A stretch of DNA of 35,499 bases from a virus (taxonomy: Duplodnaviria; Heunggongvirae; Uroviricota; Caudoviricetes): IMG/VR virus record IMGVR_UViG_2718217860_000003. One strand, written 5' to 3'. The translations under genes and the position numbers were made by a program. Shown here in pieces: positions 15,440 to 35,499 of the stretch (the first letter of the stretch is position 1; each line of letters begins with the position of its first letter). The notes beneath the pieces are model-generated. The model had not been told where the DNA came from, ran no database searches, and saw only the letters and a program-made list of their open reading frames with translations.

Positions 15440-15515
15440 GGTCCTTTAGCTCAGTGGTGAGAGCGAGCGACTCATAATCGCCAGGTCGCTGGTTCAAATC
15501 CAGCAAGGGCCACCA
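15440..15515 (+). tRNA. tRNA with CAU anticodon (ileX/ileZ-type tRNA-Ile2 if lysidine-modified; reads as Met by anticodon alone)
   Basis: Cloverleaf: acceptor GGTCCTT/AAGGGCC, D-arm GCTCAGTGGTGAGAGC, anticodon loop CTCATAA, T-arm GGTTCAAATCC, 3' ACCA. One A-C mismatch at the base of the anticodon stem. Confidence 0.8.
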
Positions 15516-15621: not shown

Positions 15622-15698
15622 GCGTTGTTAGCTCAGCCGGACAGAGCAATTGCCTTCTAAGCAATCGGTCACTGGTTCGAATCCAGTACAGCGCGCCA
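15622..15698 (+). tRNA. tRNA-Arg (UCU anticodon)
   Basis: Acceptor GCGTTGT/ACAGCGC, D-arm AGCTCAGCCGGACAGAGC, anticodon loop CTTCTAA, T-arm GGTTCGAATCC, 3' GCCA. Confidence 0.8.
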
Positions 15699-16695: not shown

Positions 16696-17124
16696 ATGGG
16701 TTTTCGTAGCGCATCAATTCTTACGTTGATTATTAGTGGGATTATTATCGGGTGCACTGATGCTGTATCGACAAATTATCATGACCGTACATCATATTAC
16801 TCCGATAAAGCAATAGAGACACAGTATGTGAGTTCATCTGAACGTACTTCTGATGTTAGTGAGGATATCCGTCTGTATGCCCATCAAATCAAGAGCGCCA
16901 TCGAAAAACAGTTCGGGGATGCGAGTAAGTATTCAGGAAAAGAGTGTACACTGAGAATGCATATGGCCCCGAATGGCCTTCTACTGGAGGTTAAAAGAGA
17001 AAGTGGAGACCTCGATTTATGTCGTGAAGCGATGAATGCGATAAAGAATGCTGATATACCTGCCCCCCCTTCGCCGGAAGTATATAAAGTATTTCAAAAT
17101 GGGGTGCTGGATTTTAAACCCTGA
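16696..17124 (+). CDS. Lipoprotein with a TolA C-terminal (domain III)-like domain
   Basis: 142-aa ORF; lipobox LIISGIIIGC; C-terminal segment (YAHQIKSAIEKQFGDASKYSGKECTLRMHMAPNGLLLEVKRESGDLDLCREAMNAIKNADIPAPPSPEVYKVFQNGVLDFKP) closely parallels the E. coli TolA domain III sequence as recalled. Confidence 0.8.
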   Translation: MGFRSASILTLIISGIIIGCTDAVSTNYHDRTSYYSDKAIETQYVSSSERTSDVSEDIRLYAHQIKSAIEKQFGDASKYSGKECTLRMHMAPNGLLLEVKRESGDLDLCREAMNAIKNADIPAPPSPEVYKVFQNGVLDFKP

Positions 17125-17274: not shown

Positions 17275-17670
17275 GTGGGATTAAAGAAAATCGTTATGTT
17301 GACTTTTTGGGTCGGTTTTGTTGCGGGATGCACACCTTTACACCCTTCAGATTGCCACAAAACTACTGCTACAGGTAGTTGCAGTTCAGGACGCTGGGAT
17401 GATCAGGATGAATGGGGGGCGCAAGCGCGGGGAATCAGAGCTGCAATTAATGCCAAACTTGATGAGCCGCATAACTGGAAAGGGAAAATATGCAGGTTGC
17501 ATATGGAATTCTCTCAGGATGGCACGGCGTTAAAAATATCTACCAGTAACGGTGATAAAGCCTATTGCGAAGCGATAAAGTCCGCAGCTCATAAAGCCAA
17601 ATTTCCGGCCTTCAACAATCCGAAAGTCTACAGAGATTTTCAGAAATCTGGCTTTGACATGCGAGGTTAG
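17275..17670 (+). CDS. Second, divergent lipoprotein with a TolA domain III-like C-terminus (paralogue of the upstream gene)
   Basis: 131-aa ORF; lipobox VGFVAGC; shares KxCxLHM...G..L...........C.A...A.......P....VY..FQ spacing with the upstream protein and TolA-III. Confidence 0.7.
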   Translation: MGLKKIVMLTFWVGFVAGCTPLHPSDCHKTTATGSCSSGRWDDQDEWGAQARGIRAAINAKLDEPHNWKGKICRLHMEFSQDGTALKISTSNGDKAYCEAIKSAAHKAKFPAFNNPKVYRDFQKSGFDMRG

Positions 17671-21337: not shown

Positions 21338-21638
21338 ATGGATCGAGAGTTGAAAAATCTGACGCTGAATATCAGTCAACTGGCGGCACTGTCAGGTGTA
21401 CATCGCCAGACTGCTGCGGCAAGGCTGCAAAATCTACCCGTTGCAGGGGGGCATGAAAGCAACCTCAAGCTTTATCGGGTGGTTGATATTGTGTCGGCAT
21501 TTCTGGCATTGCCACCGCCGGTTGCAGAAGGCGAAATGGACGCGCATGAGCGCAAAGCCTGGTATCAGTCTGAACGTGAGCGTCTTAAGTTCGAACAGGA
21601 AACGGCACAACTCATTCCGGCCAGTGATGTCAGACGGG
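21338..21638 (+). CDS. Terminase small subunit (Nu1/NohA-like), 3'-truncated by the assembly gap
   Basis: N-terminal HTH-like segment (LNISQLAALSGVHRQTAAARL); the ORF runs into the N-run. Confidence 0.6.
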
Positions 21639-21738
21639 NNNNNNNNNNNNNNNNNNNNNNNNNNNNNNNNNNNNNNNNNNNNNNNNNNNNNNNNNNNNNN
21701 NNNNNNNNNNNNNNNNNNNNNNNNNNNNNNNNNNNNNN
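21639..21738. other. Assembly gap (100 N) between terminase and tail gene M
   Basis: Run of 100 ambiguous bases; terminase-large through tail gene H are absent from the window. Confidence 0.99.
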
Positions 21739-21765
21739 TGGTCGGTTAAGTGGAGCATATCGGTA

Positions 21766-22095
21766 ATGGAGACGTTTCACTGGAAAGTGCGCCCGGATAT
21801 GAATGTGGTATCAGAGCCGAAAGTGGTGACAGTGAAGCTGGGCGATGGTTATGAACAGCGTCGTGTGGCGGGACTGAATAACCAGTTGTCGACTTACAGC
21901 GTGACGATACGTGTTCGTAAATGTGAACACCCATCTTTAAAAGCCTTTCTGGAACGGCACGGTGGCGTCCGCGCATTTCAGTGGACGCCACCTTATGACT
22001 GGAAGCCGATCAGGGTGGTTTGTCGTAAATGGTCGGCGAGCGTAGGGGCGCTGTGGGTAACCATAACGGCAGATTTTGAACAGGTCGTGGCATAG
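21766..22095 (+). CDS. M: Tail tip assembly protein M (lambda M-like)
   Basis: 109-aa ORF METFHWKVRPDMNVVSEPKVVTVKLGDGYEQR..., same length and pattern as lambda gpM. Confidence 0.9.
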   Translation: METFHWKVRPDMNVVSEPKVVTVKLGDGYEQRRVAGLNNQLSTYSVTIRVRKCEHPSLKAFLERHGGVRAFQWTPPYDWKPIRVVCRKWSASVGALWVTITADFEQVVA

Positions 22096-22104
22096 GAGGC
22101 TCTG

Positions 22105-22803
22105 ATGCAGGATATTCCACAGGAAACACATCATGAGACGACACGCCTCACTCAGTCAGCCCTGGTGGTGCTCTGGGAAATCGATCTGACAGAGGTCGGT
22201 GGAGAACGTTATTTTTTCTGTAATGAGCAGAACGAAAAAGGTGAGCCGGTTACCTGGCAGGGGCGGCAGTATCAGGCATACCCCATTCAGGGGACGGGAT
22301 TTGAACTGAACGGCAAGGGCAGTGCTGCCCGTCCGACACTGACGGTTTCTAACCTGCACGGCATGGTCACCGGGATGGCGGAAGACCTGCAGAGTCTGGT
22401 CGGCGGAACGGTGGTCAGGCGTAAGGTTTACGCCCGTTTTCTGGATGCGGTGAACTTCGTCAACGGAAACAGCGACGCCGATCCGGAGCAGGAGGTGATC
22501 AGCCGCTGGCGCATCGAGCAGTGCAGCGAACTGAGTGCGGTCAGTGCCTCCTTTGTGTTGTCCACACCGACGGAAACGGATGGTGCCGTTTTTCCGGGGC
22601 GCATCATGCTGGCTAATACCTGCACCTGGACCTATCGCGGTGATGAGTGCGGTTATCACGGTCCGGCGGTCGCGGATGAATATGATCAGCCGACGTCCGA
22701 TATCACGAAGGATAAATGCAGCAAATGCCTGAGCGGTTGTAAGTTCCGCAATAACGTCGGCAACTTTGGCGGCTTCCTTTCCATTAACAAACTTTCGCAG
22801 TAA
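22105..22803 (+). CDS. L: Tail tip assembly protein L (lambda L-like)
   Basis: 232-aa ORF with the conserved C-terminal Cys cluster (CTWTYRGDECGYHG...CSKCLSGC). Confidence 0.9.
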   Translation: MQDIPQETHHETTRLTQSALVVLWEIDLTEVGGERYFFCNEQNEKGEPVTWQGRQYQAYPIQGTGFELNGKGSAARPTLTVSNLHGMVTGMAEDLQSLVGGTVVRRKVYARFLDAVNFVNGNSDADPEQEVISRWRIEQCSELSAVSASFVLSTPTETDGAVFPGRIMLANTCTWTYRGDECGYHGPAVADEYDQPTSDITKDKCSKCLSGCKFRNNVGNFGGFLSINKLSQ

Positions 22804-22808
22804 ATACC

Positions 22809-23552
22809 ATGACACAGACAGAATCAGCGATTCTGGCGCACGCCCGGCGATGTGCGCCAGCGGAGTCGTGCGGCTTCGTGGTGAGAACACCGGAGGGGGA
22901 AAGATATTTTCCCTGCGTGAATATCTCTGGTGAGCCGGAGGCGTATTTCCGGATGTCGCCGGAGGACTGGCTGAGTGCAGAAATGCAGGGAGAGATTGTG
23001 GCGCTGGTCCACAGCCACCCCGGTGGTCTGCCCTGGCTGAGTGAGGCCGACCGGCGGCTGCAGGTGCAGAGTGATTTGCCGTGGTGGCTGGTCTGCCGGG
23101 GGGCGATTCATAAATTCCGCTGTGTGCCGCATCTCACCGGGCGGCGCTTTGAGCACGGGGTGACGGACTGTTACACGCTGTTCCGGGACGCTTACCATCT
23201 GGCGGGAATTGAGATGCCGGATTTTCATCGCGGGGATGACTGGTGGCGTCACGGCCAGAATCTCTATCTTGACAATATGGAGGCAACGGGTTTTTACCGT
23301 GTCCCACTGACAGAGGCGCAGCCTGGCGACGTGCTGCTGTGCTGTTTTGGTTCATCGGTGCCGAATCATGCCGCCATTTACTGTGGCGACGGCGAGCTGC
23401 TGCACCATATTCCTGAACAACTGAGTAAACGAGAGAGGTACACCGACAAATGGCAGCGACGCACACACTCCCTCTGGCGTCACCGGGCATGGCACGCATC
23501 TGCCTTTACGGGGATTTGCAACGATTTGGTCGCCGTATCGACCTTCGTGTGA
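22809..23552 (+). CDS. K: Tail assembly protein K (lambda K-like, MPN/JAB + NlpC/P60 domains)
   Basis: 247-aa ORF; HSHPGG (JAB-type) motif and a Cys/His peptidase-like region. The conventional lambda K start corresponds to Met49 at 22953 (199 aa). The 3' end overlaps gene I by 103 nt, as in lambda. Confidence 0.85.
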   Translation: MTQTESAILAHARRCAPAESCGFVVRTPEGERYFPCVNISGEPEAYFRMSPEDWLSAEMQGEIVALVHSHPGGLPWLSEADRRLQVQSDLPWWLVCRGAIHKFRCVPHLTGRRFEHGVTDCYTLFRDAYHLAGIEMPDFHRGDDWWRHGQNLYLDNMEATGFYRVPLTEAQPGDVLLCCFGSSVPNHAAIYCGDGELLHHIPEQLSKRERYTDKWQRRTHSLWRHRAWHASAFTGICNDLVAVSTFV

Positions 23553-24097
23553 AAACGGGGGCTGAAGCCATCCGGGCACTGGCCACACAGCTCCCGGTGT
23601 TTCGTCAGAAACTGAATGAGGGCTGGTATCAGGTGCGCATTGCCGGGCGTGATGCAGGCGAAAATGAATTATCTGCCCGTCTTAATGAGCCGCTGGCAAA
23701 TGGTGCCGTGATCCACATCGTGCCGCGTCTGGCGGGAGCTAAAAGTGGCGGTGTGTTTCAGGTGGTGCTTGGGGCGGCGCTGATTGCGGTGGCATGGTGG
23801 AACCCTGTGGGCTGGCTGGGGGCCGCGGCTGTATCGGGCATGTATGCGGCAGGGGCCAGTATGATCCTGGGCGGAGTGGCGCAGATGCTGGCACCGAAAG
23901 CCAGGACGCCCACGGCAGCCAGTACAGATAACGGCAAACAGAACACCTATTTCTCCTCACTGGATAACATGGTTGCCCAGGGCAATGTTCTGCCGGTTCT
24001 GTACGGTGAAATGCGCGTGGGGTCACGCGTGGTTTCTCAGGAGATCAGCACGGCAGACGAAGGGGACGGTGGTCAGGTTGTGGTGATTGGTCGCTGA
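23450..24097 (+). CDS. I: Tail assembly protein I (lambda I-like)
   Basis: 215-aa ORF MAATHTLPLASPGMARICLYGDLQRFGRRIDLRVKTGAEAIRALATQLP..., matching lambda gpI ends as recalled. Confidence 0.9.
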   Translation: MAATHTLPLASPGMARICLYGDLQRFGRRIDLRVKTGAEAIRALATQLPVFRQKLNEGWYQVRIAGRDAGENELSARLNEPLANGAVIHIVPRLAGAKSGGVFQVVLGAALIAVAWWNPVGWLGAAAVSGMYAAGASMILGGVAQMLAPKARTPTAASTDNGKQNTYFSSLDNMVAQGNVLPVLYGEMRVGSRVVSQEISTADEGDGGQVVVIGR

Positions 24098-24116
24098 TGC
24101 AAAATGTTTTATGTGA

Positions 24117-24143
24117 AACCGCCTCCGGGCGGTTTTGTCGTTT
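24117..24143 (+). terminator. Terminator-like hairpin between I and J
   Basis: AACCGCC-TCCG-GGCGGTT followed by TTGTCGTTT. Confidence 0.35.
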
Positions 24144-24157
24144 ATGGAGCGTGAGGA

Positions 24158-27100
24158 ATGGGTAAAGGCAGCAGTAAGGGGCATACCCCGCGCGAAGCAA
24201 AGGACAACCTGAAGTCCACGCAGTTGCTGAGTGTGATCGATGCCATCAGCGAAGGGCCGGTTGAAGGTCCGGTGGATGGATTAAAAAGCGTGCTGCTGAA
24301 CAGTACACCGGTGCTGGACAGTGAGGGGAATACTAACATCTCCGGTGTCACGGTGGTGTTCCGGGCAGGTGAGCAGGAACAGACACCGCCGGAGGGATTT
24401 GAATCATCAGGTTCCGAGACGGTACTGGGTACGGAAGTGAAATACGACACGCCGATCACCCGGACCATCACGTCGGCAAACATTGACCGTCTGCGCTTTA
24501 CCTTCGGTGTGCAGGCACTGGTGGAAACCACCTCAAAGGGGGACAGGAATCCGTCGGAAGTTCGCCTGCTGGTTCAGATACAACGTAACGGTGGCTGGGT
24601 GACGGAAAAAGACATCACCATTAAGGGCAAAACCACCTCGCAGTATCTGGCCTCGGTAGTGGTGGATAATTTGCCGCCGCGCCCGTTCAACATCCGGATG
24701 CGCAGGATGACGCCGGACAGCACCACAGACCAGCTGCAGAACAAAACGCTCTGGTCGTCATACACCGAAATCATCGATGTGAAACAGTGCTACCCGAACA
24801 CGGCACTGGTCGGCGTACAGGTGGATTCGGAGCAGTTCGGCAGCCAGCAGGTGAGCCGTAATTATCATCTGCGCGGGCGCATTCTGCAGGTGCCGTCGAA
24901 CTATAACCCGCAGACGCGGCAATACAGCGGTATCTGGGACGGAACGTTTAAGCCAGCATACAGCAACAACATGGCCTGGTGTCTGTGGGATATGCTGACC
25001 CATCCGCGCTACGGCATGGGGAAACGTCTTGGTGCGGCGGATGTGGACAAATGGGCGCTGTATGTCATCGGCCAGCATTGCGATCAGTCGGTGCCGGACG
25101 GTTTTGGCGGCACGGAGCCGCGCATCACCTGTAATGCGTACCTGACCACACAGCGTAAGGCGTGGGATGTGCTCAGTGATTTCTGCTCGGCGATGCGCTG
25201 TATGCCGGTATGGAACGGGCAGACGCTGACGTTCGTGCAGGACCGACCGTCGGATAAGGCGTGGACCTATAACCGCAGTAATGTGGTGATGCCGGATGAT
25301 GGCGCGCCGTTCCGCTACAGCTTCAGCGCCCTGAAAGACCGCCATAATGCCGTTGAGGTGAACTGGATTGACCCGAACAACGGCTGGGAGACGGCGACAG
25401 AGCTTGTGGAGGATACGCAGGCCATTGCCCGTTACGGTCGTAACGTCACGAAGATGGATGCCTTTGGCTGTACCAGCCGGGGGCAGGCACACCGCGCCGG
25501 GCTGTGGCTGATTAAAACGGAGCTGCTGGAAACGCAGACCGTGGATTTCAGCGTGGGTGCCGAAGGGCTTCGCCATGTGCCGGGTGATGTTATTGAAATC
25601 TGCGATGATGACTATGCCGGTATCAGCACCGGCGGGCGCGTGCTGGCGGTGAACAGCCAGACCCGGACGCTGACGCTCGACCGTGAAATCACGCTGCCAT
25701 CCTCCGGTACCACGCTGATAAGCCTGGTTGACGGAAGTGGCAATCCGGTCAGCGTGGAGGTCCAGTCCGTCACCGACGGCGTGAAGGTAAAAGTGAGCCG
25801 TGTTCCTGACGGCGTTGCCGGATACAGCGTATGGGGGCTGAAGCTGCCGACGCTGCGCCAGCGCCTGTTCCGCTGCGTGAGTATCCGTGAGAACGATGAC
25901 GGCACGTATGCCATCACCGCCGTGCAGCATGTACCGGAAAAAGAGGCCATCGTGGATAACGGGGCGCACTTTGACGGCGACCAGAGCGGCACGGTGAATG
26001 GTGTCACGCCGCCAGCAGTGCAGCATCTGACCGCAGAAGTCACCGCAGACAGCGGGGAATACCAGGTGCTGGCCCGCTGGGACACGCCGAAGGTGGTGAA
26101 GGGCGTGAGCTTCCTGCTTCGCCTGACCGTGGCAGCGGATGACGGCAGTGAGCGGCTGGTCAGCACGGCCCGGACGACGGAAACCACATACCGCTTCACG
26201 CAACTGGCGCTGGGGAATTACAGGCTGACAGTCCGGGCGGTAAATGCGTGGGGACAGCAGGGCGATCCGGCATCGGTATCGTTCCGGATTGCCGCACCGG
26301 CAGCGCCGTCTCGGATTGAGCTGACGCCGGGCTATTTTCAGATAACCGCCACGCCGCATCTTGCGGTTTATGATCCGACGGTACAGTTTGAGTTCTGGTT
26401 CTCGGAAAAGCGGATTGCGGATATCAGGCAGGTTGAAACCACAGCACGCTATCTTGGTACGGCGTTGTACTGGATAGCCGCCAGTATCAATATCAGGCCG
26501 GGCCATAATTATTATTTTTACGTTCGCAGTGTGAACACCGTTGGCAAATCGGCATTCGTGGAGGCTGTTGGTCAGCCGAGTGATGACGCATCCGGCTATC
26601 TGGATTTTTTCAAAGGCGAGATAGGGAAAACCCATCTGGCTCAGGAGCTGTGGACGCAGATTGATAACGGTCAGCTTGCGCCTGACCTGGCTGAAATCAG
26701 GACATCCATTACGGATGTCAGCAATGAAATCACACAGACCGTCAATAAGAAACTGGAAGACCAGAGTGCGGCAATCCAGCAGATACAGAAAGTTCAGGTT
26801 GATACAAATAATAACCTGAACAGCATGTGGGCTGTGAAGCTGCAGCAGATGCAGGACGGACGCCTTTATATCGCGGGTATCGGTGCCGGTATTGAGAATA
26901 CGCCAGCAGGAATGCAGAGTCAGGTGCTGCTGGCGGCAGACAGGATTGCGATGATTAATCCTGCGAATGGCAACACAAAGCCGATGTTTGTTGGTCAGGG
27001 CGATCAGATATTCATGAACGAAGTGTTCCTGAAATATCTGACGGCTCCCACCATTACCAGCGGCGGTAATCCTCCGGCATTTTCCCTGACACCGGACGGG

Positions 27101-27637
27101 CGGCTGACGGCGAAAAATGCCGATATCAGCGGTAACGTGAATGCGAACTCCGGGACGCTCAACAATGTCACGATAAATGAGAACTGTCAGATTAAAGGGA
27201 AACTGTCAGCCAACCAGATTGAAGGCGATATTGTCAAAACAGTGGGTAAGGCTTTCCCGCGGGACTCCCGGGCACCGGAGCGGTGGCCATCAGGGACCAT
27301 TACCGTCAGGATTTATGACGATCAGCCGTTTGACCGGCAGATTGTTATTCCCGCGGTGGCGTTTCGTGGCGCTAAACATGAGCGGGAGAATAACGATATT
27401 TATTCGTCATGCCGCCTGATAGTGAAGAAAAACGGTGCTGAAATTTATAACCGTACCGCGCTGGATAATACGCTGGTTTATACAGGTGTTATTGATATGC
27501 CTGCTGGTCGCGGTCACATGACGCTGGAGTTTTCGGTATCAGCGTGGCTGGTAAATGACTGGTATCCCACAGCCAGTATCAGTGATTTGCTGGTTGTGGT
27601 GATGAAGAAATCCACAGCAGGTATCACGATTAGCTGA
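24158..27637 (+). CDS. J: Host-specificity tail tip protein J (central tail fibre)
   Basis: 1159-aa [24 protein letters not shown]... with a lambda-J-like C-terminal receptor-binding region. Confidence 0.95.
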
Positions 27638-27657
27638 ATTTTCATAACCCATATGCG

Positions 27658-27682
27658 GGCGCCATTTCTGGCGCCTTTTTTA
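27658..27682 (+). terminator. Intrinsic terminator downstream of J
   Basis: GGCGCC-ATTTCT-GGCGCC hairpin followed by TTTTTTATT. Confidence 0.65.
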
Positions 27683-27705
27683 TTGCAGAAAAGCGAGAGG
27701 TAATT

Positions 27706-28305
27706 ATGCGTAAAGTTTGTGCAGCCATTTTGTCCGCAGCCATCTGTCTGGCCGTATCCGGTGCGCCTGCATGGGCGTCTGAGCAGCAGGCCACGCTGAG
27801 CGCAGGGTATCTTCATGCCCGTACGAACGCTTCCGGCAGCGATAATCTGAACGGGATTAACGTGAAATACCGTTATGAGTTTACGGACACGCTGGGGCTG
27901 ATTACGTCATTCAGTTATGCCAACGCTGAAGATGAGCAAAAAACGCATTACAGCGATACCCGCTGGCATGAGGATTCCGTGCGTAATCGCTGGTTCAGCG
28001 TGATGGCGGGGCCGTCTGTGCGCGTGAATGAATGGTTCAGCGCGTATGCGATGGCGGGTATGGCTTACAGCCGTGTGTCGACTTTCTCCGGGGATTATCT
28101 CCGCGTAACTGACAACAAGGGGAAAAAGCACGATGTGCTGACCGGAAGTGATGACGGTCGCCACAGCAACACGTCTCTGGCGTGGGGAGCTGGCGTGCAG
28201 TTTAACCCGACCGAATCCGTGGCCATTGATGTCGCTTATGAAGGCTCCGGCAGTGGTGACTGGCGCACTGACGGGTTCATCGTGGCTGTTGGTTATAAAT
28301 TCTGA
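27706..28305 (+). CDS. lom: Outer-membrane protein Lom (Ail/OmpX family)
   Basis: 199-aa ORF with signal peptide (AICLAVSGAPAWA) and beta-barrel C-terminal ...VGYKF. Confidence 0.9.
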   Translation: MRKVCAAILSAAICLAVSGAPAWASEQQATLSAGYLHARTNASGSDNLNGINVKYRYEFTDTLGLITSFSYANAEDEQKTHYSDTRWHEDSVRNRWFSVMAGPSVRVNEWFSAYAMAGMAYSRVSTFSGDYLRVTDNKGKKHDVLTGSDDGRHSNTSLAWGAGVQFNPTESVAIDVAYEGSGSGDWRTDGFIVAVGYKF

Positions 28306-28332
28306 TTAGCCAGGTAACACAGTGTTATGACA

Positions 28333-28358
28333 GCCCGCCGGTTCAGGCGGGCTTTTTT
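28333..28358 (+). terminator. Intrinsic terminator downstream of lom
   Basis: GCCCGCC-GGTTCA-GGCGGGC hairpin followed by TTTTTT. Confidence 0.7.
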
Positions 28359-28369
28359 GTGGGGTGAAT

Positions 28370-31300
28370 ATGGCAGTAAAAATTTCAGGTGTACTGAAAG
28401 ACGGCACAGGAAAACCGGTACAGAACTGCACAATCCAGCTGAAAGCAAAACGTAACAGTACCACGGTGGTGGTGAACACGCTGGCATCTGAAAATCCGGA
28501 TGAAGCCGGGCGTTACAGTATGGACGTTGAGTACGGTCAGTACAGCGTTATTCTGTTGGTGGAAGGATTCCCGCCGTCACATGCCGGGACCATCACAGTG
28601 TATGAAGATTCCCGACCCGGTACGCTGAATGATTTTCTCGGTGCCATGACGGAGGATGATGCCCGTCCGGAGGCACTGCGCCGTTTTGAGCTGATGGTGG
28701 AAGAGGTGGCGCGTAACGCGTCCGTGGTGGCACAGAACACGGCAGCCGCGAAGAAGTCAGCCAGTGATGCCAGCACATCAGCCCGTGAGGCGGCAACCCA
28801 TGCGACTGATGCTGCAGGCTCAGCACGCGCAGCCAGCACGTCAGCCGGACAGGCCGCGTCGTCGGCTCAGTCAGCGACTTCCAGCGCAGGAACGGCATCA
28901 ACAAAGGCCACTGAAGCATCAAAAAGTGCTGCCGCTGCAGAGTCCTCAAAAAGCGCGGCAGCTACCAGTGCCAGTGCCGCAAAAACGTCAGAAACGAATG
29001 CTGCAGCGTCACAACAATCAGCAGCCACTTCTGCATCCACCGCGACTACGAAAGCGTCAGAAGCTGCCACCTCAGCCCGGGATGCGGCGGCTTCAAAAGA
29101 GGCGGCAAAATCATCAGAAACGAACGCATCCTCGAGCGCCAGTAGCGCAGCTTCCTCGGCAACAGCGGCAGGAAATTCCGCGAAGGCGGCAAAAACGTCA
29201 GAGACGAACGCCAGGTCTTCTGAAACGGCAGCGGGACAGAGCGCCTCGGCTGCGGCAGGCTCAAAAACAGCGGCTGCGTCGTCTGCCAGTGCAGCGTCAA
29301 CAAGTGCCGGGCAGGCCTCAGCCAGTGCTAGCGCCGCCGGAAAATCGGCAGAAAGCGCCGCATCGTCTGCTTCAACAGCCACAACGAAGGCTGGCGAAGC
29401 CACTGAACAGGCCAGCGCAGCAGCGAGGTCTGCTTCCGCAGCGAAGACATCCGAAACGAACGCGAAAGCGTCGGAAACCAGCGCAGAATCCTCAAAAACG
29501 GCTGCCGCATCGTCAGCCAGTTCGGCGTCGTCATCGGCATCATCTGCGTCTGCTTCAAAAGATGAGGCGACCAGACAGGCGTCAGCAGCGAAGGGTAGCG
29601 CCACGACGGCATCCACGAAGGCGACAGAGGCAGCTGGCAGTGCGACGGCAGCAGCTCAGAGCAAAAGTACGGCGGAATCCGCGGCAACGCGCGCTGAGAC
29701 AGCGGCAAAACGGGCAGAGGATATTGCATCCGCCGTGGCGCTTGAGGATGCGAGCACGACGAAAAAGGGGATAGTACAGCTCAGCAGTGCGACCAACAGC
29801 ACTTCCGAGTCACTGGCGGCAACGCCAAAAGCCGTTAAGGCCGCGTATGACCTGGCTAACGGGAAATACACCGCACAGGATGCAACGACAGCACAGAAAG
29901 GGATAATCCAGCTAAGCAGCGCGACCAACAGCACGTCTGAAACGCTGGCGGCAACGCCAAAGGCAGTAAAATCAGCCTATGACAATGCAGAGAAACGTCT
30001 GCAGAAAGACCAGAACGGCGCTGATATACCCGATAAGGGACGCTTCCTGAACAACATTAACGCGGTCAGTAAAACAGACTTTGCTGATAAGCGTGGTATG
30101 CGTTATGTGCGGGTTAACGCTCCTGCAGGTGCAACATCTGGAAAATATTACCCTGTTGTTGTTATGCGTTCTGCTGGCTCAGTAAGCGAACTGGCATCAA
30201 GGGTCATTATCACCACGGCAACGCGAACCGCAGGCGATCCGATGAATAACTGCGAGTTTAACGGATTTGTTATGCCTGGTGGCTGGACTGACAGGGGGCG
30301 TTATGCTTATGGAATGTTCTGGCAATATCAAAACAATGAACGAGCCATCCACTCAATAATGATGAGTAATAAGGGCGATGATTTGCGCTCTGTGTTCTAT
30401 GTTGATGGCGCTGCTTTCCCTGTTTTTGCGTTTATCGAAGATGGCCTGTCAATATCCGCACCTGGTGCTGATCTCGTTGTTAATGATACGACCTATAAGT
30501 TTGGGGCAACAAATCCAGCGACTGAATGTATCGCGGCGGACGTTATCCTTGATTTTAAGAGTGGGCGTGGTTTTTATGAGTCTCATTCGTTAATCGTTAA
30601 CGATAACTTGTCGTGCAAAAAACTTTTTGCCACAGACGAAATTGTAGCGCGTGGTGGTAATCAGATTCGAATGATAGGTGGGGAGTATGGGGCATTATGG
30701 CGTAATGATGGCGCTAAAACTTACCTGCTGCTTACCAATCAAGGTGATGTTTATGGTGGATGGAATACATTAAGACCGTTTGCTATTGATAACGCAACCG
30801 GCGAACTGGTTATTGGAACCAAGCTGTCTGCAAGTCTGAACGGTAACGCATTGACAGCAACAAAGCTGCAAACGCCAAGACTGGTTTCTGGGGTTGAGTT
30901 TGATGGTTCAAAAGATATTACTTTAACCGCCGCGCATGTGGCTGCTTTTGCCAGAAGGGCAACGGATACATATGCCGATGCGGATGGTGGCGTTCCCTGG
31001 AATGCCGAATCAGGCGCTTACAATGTCACCCGCTCTGGCGACAGCTATATTCTGGTTAACTTCTATACCGGAGTCGGAAGTTGCCGGACCCTGCAGATGA
31101 AGGCGCATTACAGAAATGGTGGTCTGTTCTACCGTTCTTCAAGAGACGGTTATGGTTTTGAGGAAGACTGGGCAGAAGTTTATACCTCGAAAAATCTTCC
31201 ACCAGAAAGCTACCCAGTCGGCGCACCAATCCCGTGGCCATCAGATACCGTTCCGTCTGGTTATGCCCTGATGCAGGGGCAGACTTTTGACAAATCTGCC

Positions 31301-31900
31301 TACCCGAAACTTGCAGCCGCTTATCCGTCAGGCGTGATCCCTGATATGCGTGGCTGGACGATTAAGGGCAAGCCCGCCAGTGGTCGTGCCGTATTGTCTC
31401 AGGAACAGGACGGCATAAAATCGCATACCCACAGCGCCAGCGCATCCAGTACTGATTTGGGGACGAAAACCACATCGTCGTTTGATTACGGCACTAAATC
31501 CACGAATAACACTGGTGCGCATACCCATAGTTTAAGTGGCAGCACGAATGCAGCTGGTAATCACAGCCATAGAGATGGCCGTCGATTTAACCCCAGTGTT
31601 TTTAAAGATACTTATCAATATGGTTATACAAGCTCAGGTCAAAATACCTGGGGTGTACAAGGCTCAGTAGGTATGTCTACGGGGGCGTTAGCTAATACCA
31701 GTACAGATGGTAACCATAGCCACTCACTGTCCGGCACAGCAGCATCTGCAGGTGCACACGCACATACTGTCGGTATTGGTGCACACACGCACTCCGTTGC
31801 GATTGGTTCACATGGACACACCATCACCGTTAACGCTGCTGGTAACGCGGAAAACACCGTCAAAAACATCGCATTTAACTATATTGTGAGGCTTGCATAA
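28370..31900 (+). CDS. stf: Side tail fibre protein Stf
   Basis: Begins [26 protein letters not shown]... (the track ORF starts 2 codons earlier at GTG); long Ala/Ser-rich low-complexity shaft, tandem repeat units, His-rich HxH C-terminal tip. Confidence 0.9.
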
Positions 31901-32481
31901 TGGCATTCAGAATGAGTGAACAACCACGGACCATAAAAATTTATAATCTGCTGGCCGGAACTAATGAATTTATTGGTGAAGGTGACGCATATATTCCGCC
32001 TCATACAGGTCTGCCAGCAAACAGTACCGATATTGCACCGCCAGATATTCCTGCTGGCTTTGTGGCTGTTTTCAACAGTGATGAGGCATCGTGGCATCTC
32101 GTTGAAGATCATCGGGGAAAAACCGTCTATGACGTGGCTTCCGGCGACGCGTTATTTATTTCTGAACTTGGCTCGTTACCGGAAAATGTCACCTGGTTAT
32201 CGCCGGAAGGGGAATATCAGAAGTGGAACGGCACAGCCTGGGTGAAGGATACGGAAGCAGAAAAACTGTTCCGGATCCGGGAGGCGGAAGAAACAAAAAA
32301 CAACCTGATGCAGGTAGCCAGTGAGCATATTGCGCCGCTTCAGGATGCTGCAGATCTGGAAATTGCAACGGAGGAAGAAATCTCGTTGCTGGAAGCCTGG
32401 AAGAAGTATCGGGTGTTGCTGAACCGTGTTAATACAACAACTGCACCGGATATTGAATGGCCAGTAGCACCTATAGGGTAA
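31900..32481 (+). CDS. tfa: Tail fibre assembly protein Tfa
   Basis: 193-aa ORF; start overlaps the stf stop (TAATG); conserved Tfa C-terminus ...[31 protein letters not shown]. Confidence 0.9.
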
Positions 32482-33070
32482 ATTCGTAATGATTACCTAA
32501 ATACGTTATTCTTTTGTTCAAAAAGTGATTTTTCTATAGGTAGGGAGTATGTTCTTGGATTAAGAATAAAAAATCGCCATGAAAGAGCTTCATGGCGAGT
32601 ACATAAACGTACAAAATATGATGAAAGTAGAGTGGCGTAAGCCACTATATTAAGATATGACAATAGCGAAGAAAAGTAAATAACATTTTATGGGCGTTTA
32701 ATTGTTAATTATAAAAACTAGAGTGCCCGATATTGTTTATCTTGCTTTAAAATAATGTACTCAAACCAAATTTTTGAGCTAAAAGCTCAAATAATATAAA
32801 TGCAATGATAATGTTTAATAAGACAATTAGCTTGCTTTGTATTTTCATTTCGGAATACTGTTAAGTAACTTTGATGACACTAACAATAGATCGGAATTTT
32901 CTTAGAGTCAATGGTCACTGTTTTTGCTTGCAAAGCAAATCTTTTTGGTGGTTATAAGTTTTCTTAATATAGTCACCTATGCAACTTGTTCCGTGTGGAG
33001 ATTAAAGGTTAAAATTTAATGCGAAGATGGAATTATAATATATTTTTTTATAATTAATTTAACCTTAACA

Positions 33071-34215: not shown

Positions 34216-35499
34216 ATGGATTTCCAGTTATATTCGCTCGGCGCAGCGTTAGTGTTTCATGAAATATTTTTTCCTGAATCATCAACGGCAATGGCGTTAA
34301 TTCTGGCAATGGGAACCTACGGTGCAGGTTATGTGGCGCGTATTGTCGGAGCATTTATTTTCGGCAAAATGGGCGACAGAATAGGGCGTAAAAAAGTGCT
34401 CTTTATTACCATCACCATGATGGGGATCTGTACCACCTTAATTGGTGTGTTACCGACCTATGCACAGATTGGTGTTTTTGCACCCATCTTGCTGGTGACG
34501 TTGCGTATTATTCAGGGGTTGGGTGCAGGTGCGGAAATTTCCGGTGCCGGTACGATGCTGGCGGAATATGCGCCAAAAGGTAAGCGCGGAATTATCTCCT
34601 CATTTGTGGCTATGGGAACTAACTGCGGAACCTTGAGCGCAACGGCAATCTGGGCCTTTATGTTCTTCATTCTCAGTAAAGAGGAACTGCTGGCGTGGGG
34701 ATGGCGTATACCGTTCCTGGCGAGCGTTGTCGTGATGGTCTTTGCTATCTGGTTGCGTATGAATCTGAAAGAAAGCCCGGTCTTTGAGAAGGTTAACGAC
34801 AGTAACCAACCGACAGCAAAACCTGCACCTGCTGGTAGCATGTTCCAGAGCAAATCCTTCTGGCTGGCAACAGGGCTGCGTTTTGGTCAGGCGGGTAACT
34901 CCGGGTTAATTCAGACTTTCCTTGCAGGCTATTTAGTGCAGACGTTATTGTTTAACAAAGCAATTCCAACAGATGCATTGATGATCAGTTCGATTCTCGG
35001 CTTTATGACCATTCCGTTCCTTGGTTGGTTATCCGATAAAATTGGTCGCCGGATCCCGTATATTATTATGAATACCTCCGCGATTGTGCTGGCATGGCCA
35101 ATGCTTTCTATCATTGTAGATAAAAGCTATGCCCCGAGCACCATTATGGTTGCACTGATTGTGATTCATAACTGTGCGGTGCTGGGATTATTTGCTCTGG
35201 AAAACATTACCATGGCAGAAATGTTCGGCTGTAAAAACCGCTTTACCCGGATGGCTATTTCTAAAGAAATTGGTGGTCTTATCGCTTCCGGTTTTGGTCC
35301 TATCCTGGCGGGTATTTTCTGCACCATGACGGAATCCTGGTATCCGATCGCCATTATGATCATGGCATATTCAGTAATTGGTTTAATCTCTGCGCTGAAA
35401 ATGCCAGAGGTGAAAGACCGTGATTTAAGTGCGCTGGAAGACGCTGCGGAAGATCAACCGCGTGTTGTAAGAGCTGCGCAACCTTCCAGAAGTCTGTAA
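34216..35499 (+). CDS. ydfJ: MFS transporter (YdfJ-like metabolite:H+ symporter), 5'-truncated at the prophage junction and running off the window end
   Basis: 427-aa ORF with multiple TM helices and an MFS signature (GKMGDRIGRKKV); the first TM helix and N-terminus are missing; no stop within the window. Confidence 0.75.
   Translation: MDFQLYSLGAALVFHEIFFPESSTAMALILAMGTYGAGYVARIVGAFIFGKMGDRIGRKKVLFITITMMGICTTLIGVLPTYAQIGVFAPILLVTLRIIQGLGAGAEISGAGTMLAEYAPKGKRGIISSFVAMGTNCGTLSATAIWAFMFFILSKEELLAWGWRIPFLASVVVMVFAIWLRMNLKESPVFEKVNDSNQPTAKPAPAGSMFQSKSFWLATGLRFGQAGNSGLIQTFLAGYLVQTLLFNKAIPTDALMISSILGFMTIPFLGWLSDKIGRRIPYIIMNTSAIVLAWPMLSIIVDKSYAPSTIMVALIVIHNCAVLGLFALENITMAEMFGCKNRFTRMAISKEIGGLIASGFGPILAGIFCTMTESWYPIAIMIMAYSVIGLISALKMPEVKDRDLSALEDAAEDQPRVVRAAQPSRSL

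Follow-up and report, generated by a model that had tools for sequence, protein, structure and literature searches.

Seven HxH motifs at the C-terminal end of a lambdoid side tail fibre: a very probable metal-binding tip of the T4 gp37 type in an E. coli prophage

The window analysed here is the whole stretch of 35,499 nucleotides of a Caudoviricetes record (IMG/VR IMGVR_UViG_2718217860_000003). Its right-hand part displayed the gene order J (24158-27637), lom (27706-28305), stf (28370..31900, plus strand) and tfa (31900..32481, plus strand), the first two being assigned by Pfam and lying upstream of stf. This order is that of Ur-lambda and agrees with the annotation of E. coli strain CFSAN064035, to which the 11 kb around stf (21739-32729) were 99.98% identical. 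In that strain, the corresponding element is a lambda-like prophage inserted between rspB and a 5'-truncated ydfJ (the Qin site), with a full set of morphogenesis genes upstream of stf. Likewise, a 5'-truncated ydfJ coding for an MFS transporter (34216-35499) marked the right-hand prophage junction at the Qin integration site in the window. Judged from these sequence comparisons, stf sits in an ordinary lambdoid E. coli prophage at the Qin site. The end of the gene together with tfa (30800-32500) was very widespread: at least 11 complete E. coli genomes carried it with 100% identity, and matches were found in 4862 of the 5426 complete genomes, 1619 of which displayed one place covering at least 80% of this stretch.

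Several other features of the prophage were recorded. A 100-N assembly gap occupies 21639-21738, where the morphogenesis genes from the terminase large subunit to the tape measure, about 12.2 kb in CFSAN064035, would lie. A genuine loss of this head and tail gene block (~12.2 kb), leaving a DUF1441 fusion ORF (21338-21766), was considered and rejected, as this ORF spans the run of 100 N and is an artefact. CFSAN064035 carries an IS1 after tfaQ that is absent from the window, and the alignment blocks overlap by 9 bp at this place (32721-32729), which is consistent with an IS1 target-site duplication. Two ORFs with TolA C-terminal domains (PF06519) were found upstream of the lysis genes, at 16696-17124 (2.4e-23) and 17275-17670 (4.4e-14). 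The prophage also encodes two tRNAs (15440-15515 and 15622-15698); the one with anticodon CAT was assigned to Met by ARAGORN and its equivalent to Ile in RefSeq, the other being a tRNA-Arg (TCT).

Gene stf displayed an intact reading frame of 1176 codons plus stop. The ORF containing it spans 28364..31900 (plus strand), with the ATG at 28370 (MAVKISG...) as the biological start, which matches that of a 3531-nt RefSeq CDS annotated at the corresponding place in CFSAN064035. Pfam searches with the product yielded phage_tail_N (1.7e-71), two Phage_fiber_2 repeats (3.9e-37), a Gp34_trimer-like domain (3.6e-27) and Collar (7e-12), and among PHROGs the best assignment was phrog_295, 'tail fiber protein' (1.3e-255). 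On this domain content, the gene is a lambdoid side tail fibre gene. The N-terminal tail-attachment domain (PF08400, 28370..28771, plus strand) was matched over the full length of the profile, and Stf residues 1-94 matched the 'Tail fiber protein' of PDB entries 9E7M/9MGH at 2.1e-51; this domain is shared with Ur-lambda Stf. It is followed by a low-complexity shaft rich in Ala, Ser and Thr (residues ~135-460, 28772-29750, plus strand; 37% Ala, 25% Ser). Ur-lambda Stf comprises 774 amino acids and is thus about 400 residues shorter than the present protein with its long Ala/Ser-rich shaft. The composition of the shaft also opens several long but spurious reading frames, both in the other frames of this strand and on the complementary one. 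Near the other end of the protein, the Collar domain (PF07484, 31220..31363, plus strand) was found at the base of the tip, with E=7e-12 and 45.6 bits for a cut-off of 24.

Beyond the collar, the translated ORF displayed seven H-x-H motifs between 31424 and 31819, all on the plus strand. From the N-terminal side these are KSHTHSA (motif 1, 31424-31432, Stf His 1019/1021), GAHTHSL (motif 2, 31520-31528, His 1051/1053), GNHSHRD (motif 3, 31562-31570, His 1065/1067), GNHSHSL (motif 4, 31715-31723, His 1116/1118), GAHAHTV (motif 5, 31757-31765, His 1130/1132), GAHTHSV (motif 6, 31784-31792, His 1139/1141) and GSHGHTI (motif 7, 31811-31819, His 1148/1150). Together they hold 14 of the 20 histidines of Stf. 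Motifs 5 to 7 sit in three direct tandem repeats of 27 nt, i.e. 9 amino acids (31751-31831, family D1), which are 63-70% identical. An earlier note, made from the sequence alone, had described a cluster of such repeats at the tip of Stf. The cluster was confirmed and all five peptides named there were retrieved, to which motifs 1 and 3 were added; the range given for it (31420-31810) holds motifs 1 to 6, with motif 7 falling 1-9 nt past its end.

The number of motifs exceeded chance expectation. Shuffling of the whole protein (n=20,000) produced at most five H-x-H, and shuffling confined to the His-rich last 160 residues (n=20,000) produced at most six (3 cases), so that seven were reached in 0/20,000 replicates of either kind. 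The motifs were also unique to the stf frame, the other five frames displaying 0-1 H-x-H and 5-15 stops. A low-complexity stretch does exist elsewhere in Stf (residues 135-460) and prophage fibre genes are often fragmentary, from which it could be argued that the His enrichment is a chance or low-complexity effect devoid of specific role, or that stf belongs to a decaying prophage remnant. The probability of this reading is negligible. Not only was a chance or low-complexity origin refuted by the shuffles, by a one-to-one alignment with the solved gp37 structure (PDB 2XGF, see below) and by conservation among relatives, but the stf frame is intact, in contrast to lambda PaPa where stf is split into orf-401 and orf-314, and the CFSAN064035 element, nearly identical around stf, has its full morphogenesis gene set upstream.

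Database proteins in which the tip is fused to the N-terminal part of a terminase, ParB or capsid protein were encountered during these searches (P0007, P0008, P0011, P0041, P0048 and P0054, among many). They suggest that rearrangements or deletions with an endpoint within stf are common in E. coli prophages, unless these proteins are gene-calling artefacts.

[quoted passage not shown] When the last 366 residues of Stf were compared to PDB sequences with phmmer, 2XGF (T4 gp37 residues 785-1026) was retrieved with E=1e-85, query residues 136-366 being aligned to chain residues 27-242 with every HxH in register; it was likewise the top PDB match for full-length Stf. Identity between both tips amounted to ~72% over the last ~230 residues, and the Collar domain of Stf aligned to the gp37 collar. 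Stf motifs 1 to 7 correspond to gp37 H883/885, 915/917, 929/931, 966/968, 980/982, 989/991 and 998/1000, respectively, and all 14 histidines were invariant in a four-way alignment of Stf, T4 gp37, lambda orf-314 and the lambdoid phage PhiR34_1. The resemblance to HxH repeats of T4-like long tail fibres that had been suspected from the letters alone is therefore well supported. Distances from motif to motif were 32, 14, 51, 14, 9 and 9 residues in Stf versus 32, 14, 37, 14, 9 and 9 in T4 gp37, and 26 residues follow the last HxH histidine in both; since spacing and C-terminal tail are equal, the sole length difference lies between motifs 3 and 4. The 14-residue repeat of PF03335 (Phage_fiber) was matched at residues 1048-1061, over motif 2, below its gathering threshold (18.4 bits versus 20, E=0.0021), and precomputed PF03335 matches were present in many close homologues of Stf.

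This correspondence delimits four segments of the tip, all on the plus strand. A first half of the needle, presumed to run outward, comprises motifs 1-3 (31424..31570) and aligned without gaps to gp37 H883-H931. It is followed by a distal head of 48 residues between motifs 3 and 4 (31571..31714), which has 34 residues in T4, is hypervariable and is the presumed site of receptor contact. The returning half comprises motifs 4-7 (31715..31819) and aligned to gp37 H966-H1000. The conserved last 26 residues (31820..31897) are equivalent to gp37 residues that go back to the collar. In T4, the needle contains seven iron atoms coordinated by the HxH histidines, and the collar (D10) is composed of residues 811-881 and 1010-1026, so that the chain goes out and then returns (PMC6957217). 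Changing either H929 or H931 to alanine abolishes plaques, and so do several changes of tip residues between 933 and 949 (PMC6957217). Besides the Collar domain and the seven HxH in matching order, Stf shares with gp37 a downstream chaperone gene related to gp38. Yet the two proteins differ by the head, where Stf has 14 extra residues, a sequence unrelated to that of gp37 and no conservation of the T4 receptor-contact residues I933-Y949, by the remainder of the protein, which is that of a lambdoid Stf and not of a T4 distal half-fibre, and by the chaperone, which is here of the lambda Tfa type.

This chaperone is encoded by tfa (PF02413 Caudo_TAP, 3e-42; PHROG 105, 2.5e-98), the ATG of which overlaps the stf stop codon (TAATG, junction TTGCATAATGGCA); both genes are probably co-translated. 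Tfa displayed 94% identity with lambda Tfa and 30% with T4 gp38 (E=1e-17). That lambda stf/tfa and T4 g37/g38 can be functionally exchanged was already known in 1989 (cited in PMC3945230 and PMC9659904). Lambda Stf itself has been described as a structural homologue of gp37 that binds OmpC and accelerates adsorption (PMC12617516), and HxH motifs were previously noted in lambda (PMC11705849). The lambda protein (orf-401/orf-314) was ~79% identical to the present Stf over the tip, from which it is distinguished by an eighth HxH unit (IGAHQHPVV) and one additional FDYGTKTTG repeat, both absent here. Stf of Rac/Qin-type E. coli prophages and those of the induced lambdoid phages PhiR34_1, PhiR26_1, mEp460 and Kati displayed 98% DNA identity over the tip.

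Conservation was further examined among more remote relatives. A search of 50%-identity cluster representatives found 1833 of them; those listed were aligned and 138 spanned all seven motifs. Most relatives displayed 5-8 HxH per tip. The histidines of motif 1 were kept in 137/138 and 138/138 of these representatives, and those of motifs 5-7 in 138/138. Lack of the motif among homologues, envisaged in the earlier note as an argument against a metal-binding role, was thus not what the relatives displayed. Conservation was more relaxed for motif 2 (118-119/138, 86%), motif 3 (89-94/138, 64-68%) and motif 4 (101-117/138, 73-85%), i.e. those flanking the hypervariable head; as they are not universally conserved, some sites appear dispensable to the fold. 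Identity per column in the 138 representatives reached ~90-100% across much of the collar and dropped to 12-47% in query columns 128-175, which separate motifs 3 and 4 and where the length of the loop also ranged from 32 to 70 residues. The C-terminal 26 residues displayed 53-99% conservation per column, the last 14 being at 89% or above.

Taken with the gp37 alignment, these results make it very probable that the clustered histidines form the metal-binding core of a tail-fibre tip of the gp37 type, located at the C-terminus of Stf in this lambdoid E. coli prophage. From homology with gp37, we infer trimer formation, the identity of the metal and receptor contact by the head. According to this model, three Stf chains would emerge from the collar and extend outward as beta-strands wound around one another, build a small head at the distal end and come back to the collar, yielding a six-stranded needle. 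At each level, one HxH from each of the three chains would contribute to a set of six imidazoles holding one buried metal ion in octahedral geometry, and the seven motifs would give seven ions stacked along the needle axis. These ions would set the register of the chains and stiffen the trimer, a structural role without receptor contact, the latter being left to the hypervariable head that separates motifs 3 and 4. Folding would need the Tfa chaperone, co-translated from the gene directly downstream, much as gp37 folding requires gp38 and gp57A (PMC6957217). The HxH site has been described as octahedral and buried inside the fibre, each of three copies of one motif supplying two of the six His, and its metal was proposed to provide reference points for trimer folding of the nascent chains as well as fibre stiffness (PMC6116203). 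An AlphaFold2 run on the 236-residue tip with a 33-sequence alignment gave a mean pLDDT of 41.3 and a pTM of 0.18; this was a monomer run of a presumed trimer, and low scores of this kind are to be expected when the chains intertwine into an obligate trimer.

Six-His octahedral sites with one HxH per trimer chain are also present in R-type pyocin fibres and in the spike tips of P2 (gpV) and phi92 (PMC6116203). Unlike Stf, these proteins have one or few sites and unrelated folds, and PDB sequence searches did not detect sequence homology between them and Stf.

The buried ion at each HxH triplet is most probably iron, by analogy with gp37. A metal cannot be specified from sequence alone, and the T4 gp12 crystal contained Zn at an HxH site (PMC6116203), so that Zn2+ or Ni2+, for instance, might occupy the same architecture. 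Such an occupancy is improbable here: all seven sites of gp37, the closest homologue (~72% identity), are occupied by iron, which was also found at the HxH sites of pyocin fibres and P2/phi92 spikes, and the zinc of gp12 may be a refolding artefact, this protein having been refolded with zinc (PMC6116203). Iron in a fibre has also received a quite different interpretation. In the 'Ferrojan horse' hypothesis, cited in PMC11705849, fibre-bound iron would be a ligand mimicking a siderophore-iron complex for an iron-uptake receptor, and seven predicted sites per fibre would indeed confer a high iron-binding capacity on the tip. For Stf this is very improbable indeed, since homology with similar sites places the metal inside a six-His octahedral site, inaccessible to a receptor (PMC6116203), and T4 gp37 and lambda Stf use the head to bind OmpC/LPS (PMC12617516, PMC6957217).

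At the DNA level, the head region was mosaic. DNA homology to lambda stf ended at 31539, just past motif 2, and restarted at 31714, where motif 4 starts, with unrelated DNA in between; homology to T4 g37 was interrupted between 31497 and 31767. The head cassette was 98.6% identical in the lambdoid phages PhiR26_1, PhiR34_1, PhiR42_1, PhiR68_2, mEp460 and Kati. It also occurred, with 86.8% identity, in the 171-kb T4-like phage P896 (OL451225.1, 73132-73335), an example of an adhesin cassette common to lambdoid and T-even phages. The lambda head displayed 43.5% identity with the cassette, and the lambda and other T-even heads encountered in the search ranged from 43 to 45%. On these sequence comparisons, the mosaicism is consistent with the classical view, in which adhesin cassettes are exchangeable within a conserved frame.

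One residue of the head was polymorphic among otherwise very similar phages. Stf residue 1106 is Ala (GCG, 31685-31687), whereas PhiR34_1 and other such phages have Trp (TGG, two adjacent nucleotide changes). Among the 54 database tips with this head, 47 displayed Trp1106 and 7 Ala. This polymorphism may tune specificity. In T4, tip residues needed for function fall in the stretch equivalent to the Stf head (PMC6957217), and the receptor of lambda Stf and T4 gp37 on K-12 is OmpC and/or LPS (PMC12617516, PMC6957217). As the heads are only 43.5% identical, the lambda receptor is not transferable to the present Stf, and a literature search on the receptor of the PhiR phages found nothing relevant. 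We therefore propose, as a tentative possibility that we regard as less likely to hold than to fail, that the head cassette (31571-31714) is a distinct receptor-specificity module directed to another OmpC allele or surface receptor, with Trp/Ala1106 tuning.

The position of the HxH codons at the edges of the exchanged segment raises another question, namely whether these 'His boxes' act mainly as patches of DNA homology for swapping receptor-binding cassettes. A His-box recombination model was reportedly put forward by Tetart et al. in 1998, and our literature search for His-box or GXHXH recombination found no account of it. Several features of the region would suit such a function: lambda homology breaks near motif 2 and restarts exactly at motif 4, a single head cassette is common to lambdoid phages (98.6%) and T4-like P896 (86.8%), lambda displays an extra HxH unit of 9 amino acids, and the last three motifs lie within 27-nt repeats. 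On the other hand, the histidines are conserved at the protein level despite codon differences, those of gp37 are functionally essential (PMC6957217), and the DNA repeats, being short and 63-70% identical, would be poor recombination substrates. Recombination as the main role of the boxes is accordingly a reading to which we give somewhat the smaller share of belief; it is compatible with the structural role and does not exclude it.

The structural reading, in which the HxH motifs form the metal-binding core of the needle, concerns a feature of the tip that was already known, in a very common and annotated prophage gene. To this extent, the present analysis adds little beyond confirming a gp37-type iron-needle tip, with the metal being most probably iron, in a prophage fibre that is very widespread in E. 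coli. Its practical side lies in the head: the frame bounded by HxH motifs around it would be a natural site for swapping receptor specificity in lambda-based delivery particles, and the Stf head allele described here would provide a further natural cassette for engineering such specificity.
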